From a virus (taxonomy: Duplodnaviria; Heunggongvirae; Uroviricota; Caudoviricetes), in IMG/VR virus record IMGVR_UViG_2648501437_000030: 35,867 nt of DNA; one strand, 5' to 3'. The notes beneath the pieces are model-generated. The model was not told where the DNA came from and did no database searches. It saw only the letters and a list, made by a program, of their open reading frames with translations. A program made the translations under genes and the position numbers. Numbering within the stretch: position 1 is the first letter of the stretch; the number at the start of each line of letters is the position of its first letter. Shown here in pieces: positions 1-33,718 of this stretch.

Positions 1-909
1 ATGGGCTTTACCACAAGAGTAAAAAGCGAAGCGAGCGAGAAGAAACCGTTCAACTTTGCGCTGTTCTGGGATAAATACGGCACCTTTTTTATCCTGGCGA
101 TCATCGTCGCCATTTTTGGTTCGCTGTCGCCAGAATATTTTCTGACCACCAATAATATTACCCAGATTTTTGTTCAAAGCTCCGTGACGGTATTGATCGG
201 CATGGGCGAGTTTTTCGCTATCCTGGTCGCTGGTATCGACCTCTCGGTTGGCGCGATTCTGGCGCTTTCCGGTATGGTGACCGCCAAACTGATGTTGGCA
301 GGTGTTGACCCGTTTCTCGCAGCGATGATTGGCGGTGTACTGGTTGGCGGCGCACTGGGGGCGATCAACGGCTGCCTGGTCAACTGGACGGGGCTACACC
401 CGTTCATCATCACCCTTGGCACCAACGCGATTTTCCGTGGGATCACGCTGGTGATCTCCGATGCCAACTCGGTATACGGCTTCTCCTTTGACTTCGTGAA
501 CTTCTTTGCCGCCAGCGTAATTGGGATACCTGTCCCCGTTATCTTCTCGCTAATTGTCGCGCTCATCCTTTGGTTTCTGACAACGCGTATGCGGCTCGGG
601 CGCAACATCTACGCACTGGGCGGCAACAAAAATTCGGCGTTCTATTCCGGGATTGACGTGAAATTCCACATCCTGGTGGTGTTTATCATCTCTGGTGTTT
701 GTGCAGGTCTGGCAGGCGTCGTCTCAACTGCACGACTCGGTGCCGCAGAACCGCTTGCCGGTATGGGTTTTGAAACCTATGCCATTGCCAGCGCCATCAT
801 TGGCGGCACCAGTTTCTTCGGCGGCAAGGGGCGCATTTTCTCTGTGGTGATTGGCGGGTTGATCATCGGCACCATCAACAACGGTCTGAATATTTTGCAG
901 GTGTATTGA
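1..909 (+). CDS. Sugar ABC transporter inner-membrane permease (AraH/RbsC-type), C-terminally truncated by prophage insertion; last two codons and stop come from the phage end
   Basis: 302-aa polytopic membrane protein with typical permease glycine-rich helices; family members are about 320-340 aa and continue past the NGLN motif, whereas this ORF ends 2 codons into the Mu-like end (CAG|GTG TAT TGA). Confidence 0.8.
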   Translation: MGFTTRVKSEASEKKPFNFALFWDKYGTFFILAIIVAIFGSLSPEYFLTTNNITQIFVQSSVTVLIGMGEFFAILVAGIDLSVGAILALSGMVTAKLMLAGVDPFLAAMIGGVLVGGALGAINGCLVNWTGLHPFIITLGTNAIFRGITLVISDANSVYGFSFDFVNFFAASVIGIPVPVIFSLIVALILWFLTTRMRLGRNIYALGGNKNSAFYSGIDVKFHILVVFIISGVCAGLAGVVSTARLGAAEPLAGMGFETYAIASAIIGGTSFFGGKGRIFSVVIGGLIIGTINNGLNILQVY

Positions 910-1938: not shown

Positions 1939-2160
1939 ATGCATATGAATAAAAGAGCTAACCGCCAAGACTGGCATCGGGCTGACATCGTTGCTGAGTT
2001 ACGAAAACGCAATATGTCACTGGCCGAATTGGGAAGATCGAATCATCTTTCGTCTTCAACATTAAAAAATGCTTTAGATAAGAGATACCCAAAAGCGGAA
2101 AAAATCATTGCAGATGCATTGGGAATGACACCGCAGGATATCTGGCCATCTCGATACTAG
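1939..2160 (+). CDS. ner: Ner-like DNA-binding early regulator
   Basis: About 73 aa from ATG 1939 (RBS AAAGGA); [14 protein letters not shown]...IWPSRY matches the Ner/Nlp family. Confidence 0.85.
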
Positions 2161-2167
2161 GTGCGCT

Positions 2168-4156
2168 ATGAAAGAGTGGTATACAGCGAAAGAATTGCTT
2201 GGTTTTGCTGGTTTGCCAAAGCAAGCAACTAACATTACACGTAAGGCACAAAGAGAAGGCTGGGTGTTTAGGCAAGTTACAGGTACTAAAGGTGTATCAT
2301 TTGAATTCAATATCAAATCATTTCCTGTTGCATTACGTGCTGAAATTTTATTGCAACAAGGAGGTATTGAAACAAGCCAGGGCCGTTTTGAAATCGCCCG
2401 CCCCACGCTGGAAGCCCATGATTATGATCGTGAGGCACTGTGGAGCAAATGGGATAACGCCAGCGATTCCCAGCGCAGACTTGCTGAAAAATGGTTGCCT
2501 GCGGTTCAGGCTGCAGACGAAATGCTGAACCAGGGGGTTTCAACGAAAACGGCATTTGCGACCGTTGCAGGACATTACCAGGTCAGCGCATCCACTTTGC
2601 GAGACAAATATTACCAGGTACAGAAGTTTGCGAAGCCTGACTGGGCGGCTGCGCTTGTTGATGGACGTGGTGCATCCCGTCGCAACGTTCACAAAAGTGA
2701 ATTTGACGAGGATGCCTGGCAGTTTCTGATTGCAGATTATCTGCGACCAGAAAAACCCGCCTTCCGCAAATGTTATGAGCGTCTGGAACTGGCAGCCCGC
2801 GAGCATGGCTGGAGTATTCCCTCCCGTGCCACGGCCTTTCGCCGGATTCAGCAACTGGACGAGGCAATGGTTGTTGCCTGCCGTGAAGGTGAACATGCAC
2901 TGATGCATCTGATACCGGCACAACAGCGAACTGTGGAACACCTGGACGCCATGCAGTGGATCAACGGCGACGGTTATCTGCATAACGTTTTTGTACGCTG
3001 GTTTAACGGTGATGTGATCCGCCCGAAAACATGGTTCTGGCAGGATGTGAAAACACGAAAAATTCTGGGCTGGCGCTGCGATGTAAGCGAGAACATCGAT
3101 TCAATTCGCCTCTCGTTCATGGATGTGGTGACACGCTACGGCATCCCGGAGGATTTTCACATCACCATCGATAACACCCGTGGTGCAGCGAATAAATGGC
3201 TGACGGGGGGCGCGCCCAATCGTTACCGCTTTAAGGTGAAAGAGGACGATCCAAAGGGGCTGTTTTTACTGATGGGCGCGAAAATGCACTGGACAAGCGT
3301 TGTTGCCGGTAAAGGCTGGGGCCAGGCAAAACCTGTTGAACGTGCTTTCGGTGTTGGTGGGCTTGAGGAATACGTTGATAAGCATCCGGCACTGGCTGGC
3401 GCATATACGGGGCCAAATCCGCAGGCAAAACCTGATAACTATGGCGACCGTGCTGTTGATGCAGAGCTGTTTCTGAAAACCCTTGCTGAAGGTGTTGCGA
3501 TGTTCAATGCCAGAACAGGTCGTGAAACAGAAATGTGCGGAGGCAAACTTTCGTTTGATGACGTTTTTGAGCGTGAATACGCCAGAACGATTGTGCGTAA
3601 GCCGACCGAAGAACAAAAACGGATGCTGTTGCTGCCTGCCGAGGCGGTGAACGTTTCACGCAAAGGCGAGTTTACGCTTAAAGTTGGCGGCTCCCTTAAA
3701 GGTGCAAAAAACGTTTATTACAACATGGCGTTAATGAATGCCGGCGTGAAAAAAGTTGTGGTCAGATTTGATCCGCAGCAGCTACACAGCACGGTTTATT
3801 GCTACACCCTGGACGGTCGGTTTATCTGTGAAGCGGAATGTCTGGCACCTGTTGCGTTTAATGATGCTGCGGCAGGCCGTGAATATCGCCGCCGCCAGAA
3901 ACAACTGAAATCTGCAACTAAAGCAGCCATTAAGGCGCAGAAACAAATGGACGCGCTGGAAGTTGCTGAACTGCTGCCGCAGATAGCCGAACCAGCAGCA
4001 CCAGAATCAAGAGTTGTTGGTATTTTCCGGCCTTCCGGTAACACGGTGCAGGTGAAATACCAGGAACCCGATGAGGAATATGAAACTGATCGTGATGAAT
4101 ATCTGAATCATTCGCTGGATATTCTGGAACAGAACAGACGTAAAAAAGCCATTTAA
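2168..4156 (+). CDS. A: DDE transposase MuA
   Basis: 662 aa; from about residue 65 onward near-identical to phage Mu transposase as recalled. Confidence 0.95.
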
Positions 4157-9613: not shown

Positions 9614-10007
9614 TCTTTTTTATCGCGTTATGTACTCCCGCTTTATGTTGTCCACGTGGTCGTTTCTGGGGCTGTCGGCAGTGCTTTTTCTGGCGAGCTG
9701 TTTTGCCGGATGGCGGGCGTTTGCGGTCATGGTGTTGGCATATGGCGCGACACTCTGCCTGATTCACAGCTTTCAACTGGGCAATGTGCCTTATCGCTTG
9801 CTACCAAAAAGACGCTATCGACCAGCCTCTCGCCGTATTGTCGTGTGGTCATGGGTGGTCTGGTTCGTCGGGTATTTCATGTTGGTGTTCAGCATCTTTT
9901 TTCTTAAAGAGCTTTATCAACTGGCATTTTTGCTGGGCGGTGTCTGCTGCGCGGCGCTTTATAAACACCAGCGCCGTTTTCATAAGGGGGATTCATGGAC
10001 CCGTTAA
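9597..10007 (+). CDS. Polytopic inner-membrane protein in the lysis cassette (holin or exclusion-type candidate)
   Basis: 136 aa from ATG 9597; several hydrophobic helices (LSTWSFLGLSAVLFLASCFAGW, VVWSWVVWFVGYFMLVFSIFF). Confidence 0.55.
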   Translation: MHRMNSLFYRVMYSRFMLSTWSFLGLSAVLFLASCFAGWRAFAVMVLAYGATLCLIHSFQLGNVPYRLLPKRRYRPASRRIVVWSWVVWFVGYFMLVFSIFFLKELYQLAFLLGGVCCAALYKHQRRFHKGDSWTR

Positions 10008-10603
10008 CCCTTTCAGGCATCGCCTCTGTTCTGCTGAAAGCTGGGCCGGGGCTGATTCGTTCCGTCGGGCGCTGGTTTGGTGGCAGTACATCTGCCGCCG
10101 CTGACTCGGTGGCCGGTATGGTGGAAAGTGTCCGGGAAAGCCTGCCGGTGGCTGAACAGCAACGCATTCTGGAACAAAAACTGGTGATGTTGTCACCGGA
10201 GCAACTGATGCAGCTGGAAACCCTGAAAGTTCAGCTGCAACAGCTGGAGGTGGAACGGCAGAAGCTGGTGCTGGCTGACCAGCAGGCCGCACACCACGAA
10301 CAGCAGGAAACCATCCGCAATGGTGACAACGCCACGGACAGCTATGTGCGCCAGACACGCCCGCTGCTGGCCCGCCTTTCCTGTTACAGCAGTCTGGCCT
10401 ATGTGCTGTTGCTCTCCTGCGGCCAGATTGCCGGAGCCATTGCCGGTGCCAGAGGTATCACGCTGCATATGCCATCACCGGACTGGGATATCACGCTGAT
10501 GTTGCTTACCCCGGCGCTGGGCTATCTCGGTGTAAGAACCCTTGACGGCTTTGCCCGTTACAGCAAATCAAGCCGTCACAAAATGTCTGCGGGGCCGAAA
10601 TGA
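9995..10603 (+). CDS. Membrane protein with central coiled coil and C-terminal hydrophobic helices (3TM-holin-like)
   Basis: 202 aa, RBS AAGGGGG; coiled-coil QLMQLETLKVQLQQLEVERQKL; C-terminal TM segments. Confidence 0.55.
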   Translation: MDPLTLSGIASVLLKAGPGLIRSVGRWFGGSTSAAADSVAGMVESVRESLPVAEQQRILEQKLVMLSPEQLMQLETLKVQLQQLEVERQKLVLADQQAAHHEQQETIRNGDNATDSYVRQTRPLLARLSCYSSLAYVLLLSCGQIAGAIAGARGITLHMPSPDWDITLMLLTPALGYLGVRTLDGFARYSKSSRHKMSAGPK

Positions 10604-10827: not shown

Positions 10828-11117
10828 TCAGAGCCAACTGGCCCATTTTGTGGGCATTGCTGATGACAGGAATAAACCTGCTTCAGCTGATTCTGGCGAA
10901 AACCTACGTCAAACGTGAAGAGTTTGATTCACTCCGTTCCCGCGTGTCGGTGATGGAAAGCCAGGTACACCATTTACCCGACCGTGATGAGTTCCACCGT
11001 CTGCAACTGGATATCAGCAACCTGCGGGGAGAAATCAAAGAGCTGGGGCCATCCATCCGCCAGGTATCCCGCATCAGCGATTTGTTATTAGAGAACGAGT
11101 TAAAGGAAAAAAATTAA
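10812..11117 (+). CDS. Membrane-anchored coiled-coil protein (Mu-like DUF2730-type)
   Basis: 101 aa; N-terminal TM helix then coiled coil; conserved position before the packaging genes. Confidence 0.55.
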   Translation: MSWEMIRANWPILWALLMTGINLLQLILAKTYVKREEFDSLRSRVSVMESQVHHLPDRDEFHRLQLDISNLRGEIKELGPSIRQVSRISDLLLENELKEKN

Positions 11118-11410
11118 TGGCGATGAAAGAGATCCTCACTGAAGACCGTCGTCTGGTGTTGCTGCGTTCCCTGCTGGACTGTGGCGACAGCGCGAATGAA
11201 TCCGTGTTGCAGACCTGCCTTCAGGCTTACGGTCATAAGGTATCCCGTGATGTGGTGCGCACCCAGCTTGCATGGCTTCGCGAGCAGGGGTTGGTTCGTC
11301 TGTCTGATGTGGGCGGCTGTTACGTGGCTGAAATCACCGGCAGCGGCGAGGATGTGGCAAACGGCCTGTCCAGCGTTCCGGGCGTTAAAAAACCCCGTGC
11401 GAGGGACTGA
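11117..11410 (+). CDS. Hypothetical protein, possible winged-helix
   Basis: 97 aa ORF upstream of the packaging genes. Confidence 0.55.
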   Translation: MAMKEILTEDRRLVLLRSLLDCGDSANESVLQTCLQAYGHKVSRDVVRTQLAWLREQGLVRLSDVGGCYVAEITGSGEDVANGLSSVPGVKKPRARD

Positions 11411-11412
11411 GC

Positions 11413-11712
11413 ATGGCCCGAAAACTGAAGCCGTTAAGTCGCGGAGAACGGGCCGTCGTGCGGCAGCTGGCGTACTGCCTTGTGCTGGCAGATATTGAGC
11501 AAAAGGCCATTGCCTGTGCATACGAACAACAGACCGGAAAGCCCTGGAACCCGGATGCACCGGATACCCCCATGAAACGTGCCCTGCGTTCATCACCGGC
11601 ATGTGCGCGGCTGTGGAAGCTGCTGGGTAAGGATATCCGCTCCGTTCGCGAAGAAATATACGCCGGTCTGAAAACACCGGGAACTGAAGACGGGGGCCGT
11701 CGTGAACCGTAA
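11413..11712 (+). CDS. Hypothetical protein
   Basis: 99 aa ORF tightly linked (3-nt gap) to the upstream gene. Confidence 0.5.
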   Translation: MARKLKPLSRGERAVVRQLAYCLVLADIEQKAIACAYEQQTGKPWNPDAPDTPMKRALRSSPACARLWKLLGKDIRSVREEIYAGLKTPGTEDGGRREP

Positions 11713-11849
11713 AAAGAATCCGATAAGTAAAGCGTCCCGTGATGAACTCCGCCGTCTGGCGCACAACCTGACATGGCGTGAAATCCAGAGTGGCGCGCTG
11801 AAATCTGCATACGAAAGTTCACAGCGTAGTGAGCAACAGGAGGGCACAC

Positions 11850-12431
11850 ATGGAAAATGAACAACGCCCCACCCGTGGCCGTCTTTCCAAAGTGGATTTA
11901 CTCCCGGACAGCATCCGGGAGCAGTTGCATCAGATGCTGCGGGAAAAGCGGCACACGCAGGAAGAAATCCGCGAAGCCATCAATGCCCTGATTGACGAAC
12001 ATAACCTGCCGGAAGAGATGCAGTTAAGCCGGACGGGCTTAAACCGCTACGCCATCCGCATGGAAAAAGTCGGGGCCAAAATCCGCGCCTCCCGCGAAAT
12101 GGCCGAAGTCTGGGCGGCAAAGCTGGGTTCTGCGCCGACGTCTGACGTCGGCAAGCTGCTGATGGAGTTTGTAAAAACGCTGGCCTTTGAAACGTCCATG
12201 TCGATGGCAGAAGACGACAAGCCAGTTGCACCGAAAGCGCTGGGGCAACTGGCGCTGGTTGCCCAGCGTCTGGAAGCGGCAGCCATGACCAGCCATAAAC
12301 GCGAGAAAGCGATCCGCGATGCGTTTGCGCAGGAGATGGCAGAGAAAACCGAAGAACTGGTCAGAACGGGCGGTCTGTCAGGCGGTACGGCTGACACCAT
12401 CAAACGAGACATTCTGGGGATTAGCGTATGA
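11850..12431 (+). CDS. Mu gp27-like terminase small-subunit candidate
   Basis: About 193 aa from ATG 11850 (RBS CAGGAGGG); overlaps the start of the large terminase gene. Confidence 0.65.
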   Translation: MENEQRPTRGRLSKVDLLPDSIREQLHQMLREKRHTQEEIREAINALIDEHNLPEEMQLSRTGLNRYAIRMEKVGAKIRASREMAEVWAAKLGSAPTSDVGKLLMEFVKTLAFETSMSMAEDDKPVAPKALGQLALVAQRLEAAAMTSHKREKAIRDAFAQEMAEKTEELVRTGGLSGGTADTIKRDILGISV

Positions 12432-30596: not shown

Positions 30597-31127
30597 ATGG
30601 AACTCAGAAACGTCACGCGTTATTACCCGGAAGAGATGCCTTATGGTGAAAACATTCAGTATTTCCGCAGTGAAGACGGACAGGATTTTTATGAATCACT
30701 GGATAAATTCACGAAGAAATACAAATTGTGTATTCACCCGGAAACCGGCGTGATTTATTCAATGGCAGAAGACGTGTCCCGTCTTTATCCTGTTGGTTTT
30801 ACCATTGTGGAAGTGGATGAACTGCCGGAGGGTTTTGGCATCGAAGCCAGCTGGTATTACCGGGATGGCGAAGTACTGCCAGTTCCTGTTGATTATTCGA
30901 AACTGGCAGAAAAGCAACGTCAGCGCTTGCTGAATGAAGCAAAGGAAATCACTTCCGACTGGAAAACCGAGCTGGAGCTTGGCACCATCAGTGATGACGA
31001 CAAGGCCCGTCTTACGCAGTGGATGGAATATATCAAAGCGGTAAAGGCGCTGGATTTAAGCACCGTTACTGACGAAGCCTCCTTTAATGCCATCAACTGG
31101 CCGGAGCGTCCCGATGCCGCAGCTTAA
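30597..31127 (+). CDS. Tail fibre assembly protein (Mu U / Tfa-like)
   Basis: 176 aa from ATG 30597 (RBS AAGGAG); Tfa-type organisation. Confidence 0.75.
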   Translation: MELRNVTRYYPEEMPYGENIQYFRSEDGQDFYESLDKFTKKYKLCIHPETGVIYSMAEDVSRLYPVGFTIVEVDELPEGFGIEASWYYRDGEVLPVPVDYSKLAEKQRQRLLNEAKEITSDWKTELELGTISDDDKARLTQWMEYIKAVKALDLSTVTDEASFNAINWPERPDAAA

Positions 31128-33711
31128 AGGTGTGATTAAAACGCCCACGGGAGAACCGCTGGGCGGCGCAACCATTACACTGACCTCCCTGCACAACCGT
31201 GCAGGGATTCTGAAAGGTGTTTTCAGTCACGTCACCACACAGAATGGGGAATATAACTTCCCCGTTCTGCCGGGCGTGTACAGCGTTCGCCTGACGCAGA
31301 GTGTACAGCGCCTTTCAGAAATCGGTGTCATCCGCGTTTATGAAGATTCAGCGGATGGTTCGCTGAATGATTTTCTGGGCGCAACCGATATTGACCTGCG
31401 CCCGGAATCCCTGAAGAAATACGAGGAACTGGCACAGCAGGCGCAGCAGAGCGCGGAAGCCGCAGCAGAAAGCGAGCAGCAGGCAGGGCAACATGCAGAC
31501 GCTGCCGCCCGGGAAAAAGAAGAGGTAAAAAACCTGGCGGAAGGTGTTCAGCAGAACGCCGACGCGGTTGCGGAGGGTAAACAACAGGTCGAAACTCTGG
31601 CCTCAGAAGTTGGGCAGAATGCCGCCGCGGCAGCCATGAGTGCTCAGGAGGCGAAAGACGCAGCCGGGCATGTGCAGGGATTCATTCATGACCACCTTTC
31701 AGTATCAACCCGTTATTCGGTAACAGAGGCGAACCGTCAGCTACAGGCGTTGAGGATAAACAGCGGGCGCTACGAGGGGCTGTGGCGCTACCTGAATGCG
31801 AACGGTGGTATCAACTGGTATTTTCTGTTTCTTGCCGTGTATGAAAGTGAAGGAAAATGCTTTTCCCTCAGTGACCGTATGACAATTTGCGAAAAGGCGT
31901 TAAGACTGGGGCTTGTGGTTCCGTTTATGACAGGTTGCCGTTATGAAGCCGGGCAGCGCCTGACAATAGACGGCACGCTCTTTTTTGTTAATATCGCGGG
32001 CACCACCGGGGAAACGTTGCCTGATATCACCTCTGTAGCCCCCGGAGATTTTGTCCGGACTGGCTCCGCTGTGCTGGAGTGCCTGAAAAGCCCCTCAAAC
32101 CGAATCCCGGCTGCATGGCAGTATTTTTTTCTGGATGTGGCTCCGGATTTGTATACCCCCGTTGCGCCGGACTCCACGGACAGCTACCCGGCGCTCTGGT
32201 TCGCCTGCATTGCTGAATTTGCGGACAGTGCCTGGTTACAGGAGCCAGCCGGAATCGGCGGGTCCAGCCGCTGGGAAATCATAAAACAGGTGGCAAAGTT
32301 CAATATCGTTGCTGAAATAAATCCGGTGGCCAGTCTGGTAAACGTATTCCAGCACAATCTTGCACCCGGTGACCGGGCTTATGCACAGTGTTTTTGTCAG
32401 GATAACGCAGAGGTTTATGCTGGTTTACGTGCACTGAAAACACTGGCTGACCTTGCCGGAGATACCACTGCTGCAACTGAATATACCGCTGCCATGAAAA
32501 CCATCAGGGCTGGCCTGCTTGCGTTGTTTGTACCTGAACAAAAACGGTTCCTGACGTATTACAACGAGACGGATTACCCGGCAGAGCCTGGTGAAGGGCG
32601 TTTTGTTGATAAGGACCGTTTTTCTGTGGCCCCGTGGCGCTTTGGGGTGCTGGAAACACAGGAAGAAGTGGAACGGTACGGCAGGCAGGTTCTGGACGCC
32701 ATACAGAGTGCTTACCCGGACCTGTTCACGGCAAATTACGACGGCATTGATACGTTTGCCATGAGTGATTTTTTTGCTTTTGTGGCAAAGGTTACCACTT
32801 CTCAGACGGCAGCCACGGCTGCCATCAGACGCCTGCAAATCCGGGCGACATCTGCCGTCACGGTGGCCGACGTTGCCGCCGCCATATCCGTTACAGCCTG
32901 GGGAAAAATCCCACAGTTTCGTGCCTGTGATTTTATGCGCATCAACGGGCATTCCGTGCTCGGAGGGGGCGATATCACGCTGGGCGCGGCGACCACAATG
33001 GAGCCACAGAGTGATATTCGCGACAGGACGGAAGGCAGGCTGGCACTTCCCGATGCCTTCGGTTTTGGGCGTATATTCAACACAAACGAAACTGTCCGCT
33101 TTGACTCAGAAAATGATTTTCTGGTGTGGGTAAAACAGGTCACGCCAGGAGAATATTTTGTTGAGGGTGGCAATAAAATTATACCCAATGTGCTGTTCAG
33201 CGGGATTGTCAGTATTCGGTGGATTGAGTCCAGATATGCCACACCGAGTCCGATAAATACAGCAAAGGCGATTATTTTCTATGGTGTTAATGGCCACATT
33301 TATTACAACCGCTACTGGACCACAGGAAATGGTTATCTCATTGACTGGGAATCACTGAAGGTAACCTCGCAGGACATTATTGCTCTTCTGTCCGGCCTTG
33401 CTCCCGGAACTACAGATACCTGGTACGGCACTGGCAGCCTGATACTGGCGGCATATAACGGCCAGGGAAACGCAGACCCGGACCGCAGAATAAAGCGAGG
33501 TTACAGCTATCCTGGGTCACGTCTGAGTGCGGTTGAATTGATGTGTTACGGTACGACCGGGACCGGGGTTAAATACAACGGCAGTGTTTCTGTGTATGTT
33601 CAGGGTTCCGGTGGCGGAATGCCAGGCACATACCGGGCATTGTCGGGGAATGGACTGGGGTCTGCCGGTTCCGCCAGCGTCATGATTGGTCTGTTTATAC
33701 GAGTTGCGTAG
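31114..33711 (+). CDS. Lambda-Stf-like side tail fibre/tailspike with large central domain of unknown (possibly enzymatic) function
   Basis: 866 aa from ATG 31114; N-terminal domain (...VYSVRLTQ...IRVYEDSADGSLNDFLGA) matches lambda Stf family N-termini, then Ala/Gln/Glu-rich coiled coil, about 500 aa globular region, Gly-rich C-terminus. Confidence 0.75.
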   Translation: MPQLKGVIKTPTGEPLGGATITLTSLHNRAGILKGVFSHVTTQNGEYNFPVLPGVYSVRLTQSVQRLSEIGVIRVYEDSADGSLNDFLGATDIDLRPESLKKYEELAQQAQQSAEAAAESEQQAGQHADAAAREKEEVKNLAEGVQQNADAVAEGKQQVETLASEVGQNAAAAAMSAQEAKDAAGHVQGFIHDHLSVSTRYSVTEANRQLQALRINSGRYEGLWRYLNANGGINWYFLFLAVYESEGKCFSLSDRMTICEKALRLGLVVPFMTGCRYEAGQRLTIDGTLFFVNIAGTTGETLPDITSVAPGDFVRTGSAVLECLKSPSNRIPAAWQYFFLDVAPDLYTPVAPDSTDSYPALWFACIAEFADSAWLQEPAGIGGSSRWEIIKQVAKFNIVAEINPVASLVNVFQHNLAPGDRAYAQCFCQDNAEVYAGLRALKTLADLAGDTTAATEYTAAMKTIRAGLLALFVPEQKRFLTYYNETDYPAEPGEGRFVDKDRFSVAPWRFGVLETQEEVERYGRQVLDAIQSAYPDLFTANYDGIDTFAMSDFFAFVAKVTTSQTAATAAIRRLQIRATSAVTVADVAAAISVTAWGKIPQFRACDFMRINGHSVLGGGDITLGAATTMEPQSDIRDRTEGRLALPDAFGFGRIFNTNETVRFDSENDFLVWVKQVTPGEYFVEGGNKIIPNVLFSGIVSIRWIESRYATPSPINTAKAIIFYGVNGHIYYNRYWTTGNGYLIDWESLKVTSQDIIALLSGLAPGTTDTWYGTGSLILAAYNGQGNADPDRRIKRGYSYPGSRLSAVELMCYGTTGTGVKYNGSVSVYVQGSGGGMPGTYRALSGNGLGSAGSASVMIGLFIRVA

Positions 33712-33718
33712 GTGATTT

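Follow-up and report, generated by a model that had tools for sequence, protein, structure and literature searches.

A small late gene in a Mu-like Escherichia coli prophage probably encodes a truncated paralog of the adjacent phrog_8988-family protein

The frame that runs from 11702 to 11860 on the + strand is probably a small late-operon gene, encoding a 52-aa truncated paralog of the 99-aa phrog_8988-family protein encoded next to it. The window, i.e. the whole stretch of 35,867 nt that was analysed, is a complete Mu-like prophage of E. coli RM11911 (NZ_CP044313.1), which it matches at 100% identity in reverse orientation. The small open reading frame (ORF), a truncated 'mini' paralog within the phrog_8988 family, starts with GTG and comprises 52 codons plus TGA. 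The initial annotation had drawn it as 55 codons reaching 11869: its translation from GTG 11702 (VNRKKNPISKASRDELRRLAHNLTWREIQ...) agrees with ours, but the frame meets its own TGA at 11858-11860 and has only 52 codons. Along with this stop codon it had overlooked a Shine-Dalgarno-like site and the truncated paralogy to the gene just upstream. It was right, on the other hand, in placing an ORF in the gap between the gene at 11413..11712 and the gp27-like gene (ATG 11850).

The ORF in fact overlaps both of its neighbours, the upstream 99-aa gene and gp27, by 11 nt each. Its start shares GTGAACCGTAA (11702..11712, +, from the sequence) with the stop of the 99-aa gene, and its stop shares ATGGAAAATGA (11850..11860, +) with the start of gp27. 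The latter (11850..12431, +) is the Mu gp27/DUF3486 gene, the presumed small terminase subunit (PF11985 Phage_Mu_Gp27, E=4.5e-55; phrog_426 'terminase small subunit'), and its reading frame is not that of the small ORF. That the small ORF might extend gp27/DUF3486 at the N-terminus was considered and rejected, given this difference in frame and the stop at TGA 11858-11860; the PF11985 match begins at residue 15 of the product starting at ATG 11850. A run of 52 open codons is not significant by itself ((61/64)^52 ~0.08), and the case beyond chance for the small ORF is, at the level of sequence comparison, the sum of its homology to the neighbouring gene and the conservation of its frame in relatives.

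Homology is the first of these two arguments. The long paralog (11413..11712, +) is a full-length member of phrog_8988, an uncharacterised phage protein family, and covers profile positions 1-91 of 92 with E=2.5e-43. The short protein matches the same profile in hmmscan (E=3.3e-4, 21.5 bits), with residues 1-41 falling onto positions 1-41 of 92, and BLASTP aligns its residues 1-38 to the neighbouring 99-aa protein at 39% identity (E=1e-8). A comparison by hhalign of 'pure' short forms with long forms taken from outside Escherichia, a choice that makes the test non-circular, gave E=1.8e-5, pairing columns 1-39 with columns 1-39. The DNA, too, contains short exact repeats offset by 289 nt, the distance between the paralogs. 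Residues 1-39 of the short form align without gaps, and from residue 1, with the N-terminus of the long family, and both forms share a basic motif, M-x-[RK]-K-x-x-P-[LI]-S, followed by the first long helix. The short form is devoid of the invariant TGKP[YW] loop (TGKPY), of helix 2, and of the return helix with its conserved Trp; among long forms G42, K43, L58, and W68 are invariant. Several conserved hydrophobic positions of the long family have turned polar in the short form, as in V15E and V24T. The tail of the short form, SQRSE..GK, resembles the C-termini QRSEDGK and LRSENGK of long forms, so that the short form may be an internally deleted long form, a suggestion resting on a 4-residue match.

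Structure predictions point in the same direction. AlphaFold2 models the long form as a helical hairpin (H10-41, H53-60, and H62-87; pLDDT 85.5) and the short form as a single long helix spanning residues 10-50 (pLDDT 85). By alignment and model alike, the small ORF appears to be a truncated derivative of phrog_8988 rather than a full member. Its product would consist of one amphipathic helix preceded by a basic N-terminal peptide, would probably retain any partner contact that the N-terminal part of the long protein makes, and would act as a short or redundant isoform. Searching the PDB with the long-form model (Foldseek) returned only generic coiled-coil noise, with E of 4 or more; the short protein had no Pfam or NCBIfam match even at permissive E limits of 10 and 1, and neither form had a match in PADLOC, which covers anti-phage defence. 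The pattern 'LS..R....LA....EI' had prompted us to consider an HTH or Terminase_2-like domain, which was discarded for lack of any Pfam/NCBIfam match and in view of the hairpin predicted by AlphaFold2. An exhaustive HMMER search among 1.84 billion representatives yielded 12 matches with E<=0.001, about 9 of them short phage-type proteins and none an annotated relative, which points to a small family, and scans of species-representative genomes with the short-form profile and the long protein gave no confirmed loci.

Short and long forms are alike in their slot just upstream of gp27 and in their 11-nt overlap with it; they differ in length (52 aa against 91-99 aa) and in distribution, which for the short form is narrower (Escherichia and some Salmonella). 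The small ORF also shows the positional trait of phrog_8988, i.e. a location directly upstream of the next late gene with an overlap of 8-11 nt. Distant homologs of the family occur elsewhere: three of them lie in a lysis cassette (L028 136..420, L029 594..878, and L030 2501..2782), directly after a Phage_Mu_gp18-like gene in L029 and L030, directly before a GTA_holin_3TM-like gene in L028 and L030, and overlapping the downstream gene by 11 nt in all three. The phrog_8988 family is thus found away from the terminase gene as well. The lysis region of the window itself contains a 202-aa 'hypothetical protein' (9995..10603) with a weak resemblance to PF11351 GTA_holin_3TM (E=7.8e-4, below the Pfam cutoff), which may be holin-like.

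Conservation of the frame is the second argument. Among 5,426 complete E. coli genomes, 46 carry the region (47 records), and four architectures can be distinguished for the slot that separates the gp26-like gene from gp27. In architecture A, found in 26/47 records, the long gene (95 aa) stands alone; in architecture B, found in 21/47 and represented by this window, a long gene (99 aa) is followed by the short one. Architecture C has only the short gene, placed in the register of the long gene: it is 'pure' in L007 and L025 and chimeric in L008-10 from E. marmotae (MARKLKPLS+KASRDEL...), and in all of them it is the sole gene of the slot, beginning 2 nt past the gp26-like stop. Nowhere in the 5-kb late region examined do these short-only prophages contain the long gene, and the short form is thus more than just the long one's partner. 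Architecture D is a 67-aa in-frame fusion, listed in 194 blocks of the collection, as exemplified by P0001 (MARKLKPLSRGERAVV + NRKKNPI...). The initial annotation had made the reality of the frame depend on its conservation in related prophages, and the frame is indeed kept in relatives: 15 distinct intact nucleotide variants of the small ORF are spread across three architectures. A metagenome scan contributed only two new nucleotide variants (L052 and L053) and no new substitution event. Frameshifted copies exist too (L027, P0005, and P0006), and among the relatives examined those from Klebsiella and of the P0054 and P0056 types lack the short gene. These relatives (Klebsiella phage Kp4866-3 among them) have only the long form before gp27, sometimes plus another accessory gene. 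For instance, the P0054-type locus L033 (IMG/VR UViG_2718218443_000003) has an extra 124-aa gene at 2134..2508, between the gp26-like and the long phrog_8988 genes, which marks out the gp26/gp27 slot as an accessory-gene hot spot.

The difference between architectures A and B is a 160-bp segment (11691..11850, +), present in B and missing from A in an alignment with L004 and L005, its boundary being ambiguous by 1 nt. The slot measures 450 nt in B and 290 nt in A, and the segment supplies the long gene with a new 3' end, contains the body of the small ORF, and brings the canonical AGGAGG used by gp27. This leads to the main rival reading, a recombination scar or decaying fragment, which we consider possible and do not favor: the 160 bp would be what remains of another, divergent phrog_8988 allele, its 5' part together with the gp27 junction, acquired when Mu-like prophages recombined illegitimately or unequally. 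The frame would then be open largely by chance and its translation incidental, with selection keeping only the AGGAGG and the stop/start junction that serve gp27. The location of the small ORF on a discrete indel fits this reading; frameshifted copies and the commonness of long-only prophages also fit, and by a rough estimate of our own about 19 substitutions would leave a 52-codon frame open by chance ~40% of the time. Against it, no fewer than three diverged lineages have the short gene as sole occupant of the slot, its start codon and RBS being in canonical register, and the in-frame fusion is widespread.

The fusion itself has a simple relation to the tandem arrangement. An 11-nt direct repeat, GGGCCGTCGTG (repeat family D2), occurs within the long gene (11450..11460, +) and again across the start of the small ORF (11694..11704, +). 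Losing exactly the 244 nt between copies gives the 67-aa fusion and a slot of 206 nt (450 - 244). One can go further and regard the slot as a fast-turnover accessory locus, in which the hairpin protein and the one-helix mini are swapped, stacked, and fused under selection for a host- or phage-interaction function, with the mini as a competitor or specificity variant; lysis timing, packaging modulation, or counter-defence could be such functions, and the direct repeat would be the recurrent route between tandem and fused states. We hold this more ambitious proposal to be unlikely.

We then return to the gene reading and to selection on the small ORF. Its 15 intact variants imply 15 synonymous and 20 nonsynonymous events, with 16 substitutions in third codon positions and 11 and 8 in the others. 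Omega was 0.38 (P=0.005) when transitions and transversions were not weighted, and 0.53-0.57 (P=0.05-0.07) under the observed bias (26 transitions and 9 transversions). The other two sense frames gave an omega of about 1 and many stops. The same method returned 0.03 for the gp26-like gene, 0.15-0.21 for gp27, and 0.29-0.38 for the long paralog. Compared with L007, the small ORF has dS=0.30 and dN/dS=0.30 with the frame open, the dS of its neighbours being 0.28-0.44. Nonsynonymous changes did not significantly avoid the columns conserved in the family (P=0.23). Purifying selection on the small ORF is thus weak and only marginally significant, with an omega of about 0.4-0.55. These data cut both ways as regards a scar: an omega of 0.4-0.57 with P up to 0.07, and changes that show no bias away from conserved columns, are what a decaying fragment could display, yet the synonymous excess is confined to the small-ORF frame among the sense frames, and the omega is near that of the bona fide long paralog. 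Overall, an accessory gene under weak constraint would account for the data, which are also compatible with neutrality. The small ORF is dispensable and under relaxed purifying selection.

The same synonymous excess bears on whether the real gene could lie on the opposite strand, as 11593..11847 (84 aa), 11385..11864 (159 aa), or 11114..11764 (216 aa). The 84-aa frame mirrors the excess only because its wobble positions coincide with those of the small ORF. None of the three ORFs has a PHROG match, all cross well-supported genes of the + strand (gp26-like and long phrog_8988), the short-only and long-only architectures would cut them short or abolish them, and the entire late region is transcribed on the + strand; an antisense gene is hardly credible.

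Turning to translation of the small ORF on the + strand, the initial annotation had reported no clear ribosome-binding site, a statement that does not hold. A Shine-Dalgarno-like GGGGG (11692-11696, +) lies 5 nt 5' of GTG 11702, and its duplex with the anti-Shine-Dalgarno has an energy of -8.6 kcal/mol; energies <= -8 kcal/mol are reached at 3.6% of sampled window positions. The site is stronger than those of the TraR, gp26-like, long-gene, and TerL starts, and a good Shine-Dalgarno site at this place argues against a scar as well. The Shine-Dalgarno site of gp27, AGGAGG (11838..11843, +; -10.8 kcal/mol), falls within codons 46-48 of the small ORF. It replaces the weaker AGAGG of long-only prophages, 6 nt before the gp27 ATG, as one would expect if the segment were a non-coding leader, i.e. 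an RNA or DNA spacer whose strong Shine-Dalgarno site or structure tunes the expression of gp27 and terminase, the ORF being irrelevant. Such a leader would need only its last ~20 nt for the Shine-Dalgarno site, which leaves the protein homology of codons 1-39 and the third-position bias unexplained, and scans of the region found no Rfam family, no promoter, and no + strand terminator. We regard this explanation as very improbable.

The small ORF, taken as a gene, is probably translated. With no promoter, + strand terminator, or Rfam element nearby, its expression would depend on the polycistronic late transcript, within which it would be translated. Initiation would use its own GGGGG site together with termination-reinitiation where the small ORF overlaps the long gene (GTGAACCGTAA), an 11-nt geometry that would suit such coupling. 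Coupling would run from the long gene to the short gene and on to gp27: ribosomes leaving the small ORF at its stop, 8 nt past the gp27 ATG, would hand translation over to gp27. In long-only prophages the long gene ends in the same junction with gp27 as the small ORF does here, and any occupant of the slot, long or short, ends at one shared TGA, 8 nt into gp27. In prophages without the short gene, it would thus be the long gene that performs this hand-over.

In public databases the small ORF is already known as a hypothetical protein in RefSeq and UniProt. The initial annotation had called it unannotated, which is not the case in public records: in RM11911 and most other carriers, RefSeq PGAP has a CDS with just these ends, the hypothetical protein WP_001080359.1. 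WP_001080359.1 and UniProt A0A7T2IZD3 (Enterobacteriaceae) have the same sequence and RM11911 coordinates as our ORF, without any difference; these records carry no family assignment and make no mention of paralogy. The exact 52-aa protein is found in 371 public contigs under the title 'MULTISPECIES: hypothetical protein [Enterobacteriaceae]', and the short protein's 90%-identity cluster comprises 30 members, which come from E. coli, E. marmotae, E. albertii, and Salmonella Newport. In FDAARGOS_943 (L003 1202..1360) the small ORF is intact and its protein identical to that of the window, and PGAP skips it. Public calling of the small ORF is inconsistent between genomes. A literature search returned no paper on WP_001080359 and none combining 'Mu-like prophage' and DUF3486.

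Some other features of the prophage were observed along the way. Its c-repressor side is on the left and com/mom on the right; the left end (window 1..897) abuts a truncated GspE/PulE-family pseudogene, and insertion of the prophage may have disrupted this GspE/PulE-family gene. The gp26-like gene (VpaChn25_0724 family) starts in RefSeq at its second ATG (11123; 95 aa), other callers choosing the form that begins at the first ATG (11117; 97 aa). At 31087..33711 there is an intact 874-aa ORF with a Pfam phage_tail_N match (4.6e-28) and a weak MGH1-like glycoside-hydrolase match; RefSeq has there only a 361-nt partial pseudogene (about 31113..31473), and ~2.2 kb (31474..33717) are without any RefSeq CDS.

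What is added here is the labelling of the small ORF as a truncated phrog_8988 paralog, so that it is no longer an orphan, and the description of an allelic series (long, short, tandem, and fused) at one prophage slot. The significance of this beyond annotation hygiene is little. Were the function of phrog_8988 found, the natural long, short, and fusion variants would be a ready structure-function series.

A known system to which the region can be compared is the late region of Mu. Mu gene 25 encodes releasin, whose expression stems from the late transcript (PMC9239132); this article on Mu lysis makes no mention of gp26 or gp27. The genes flanking the slot are collinear with Mu late genes 25 (releasin, DUF2730), 26, 27 (DUF3486), and 28 (large terminase), the order here being DUF2730, gp26-like, gp27, and TerL. 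A distant blastn comparison with Mu gave a match limited to the gene 25/26 junction and none in the slot. The Mu map is not known to have a gene between 26 and 27. The prophage studied here houses accessory genes at this position, the long and the short one, joined in relatives by the extra 124-aa gene.
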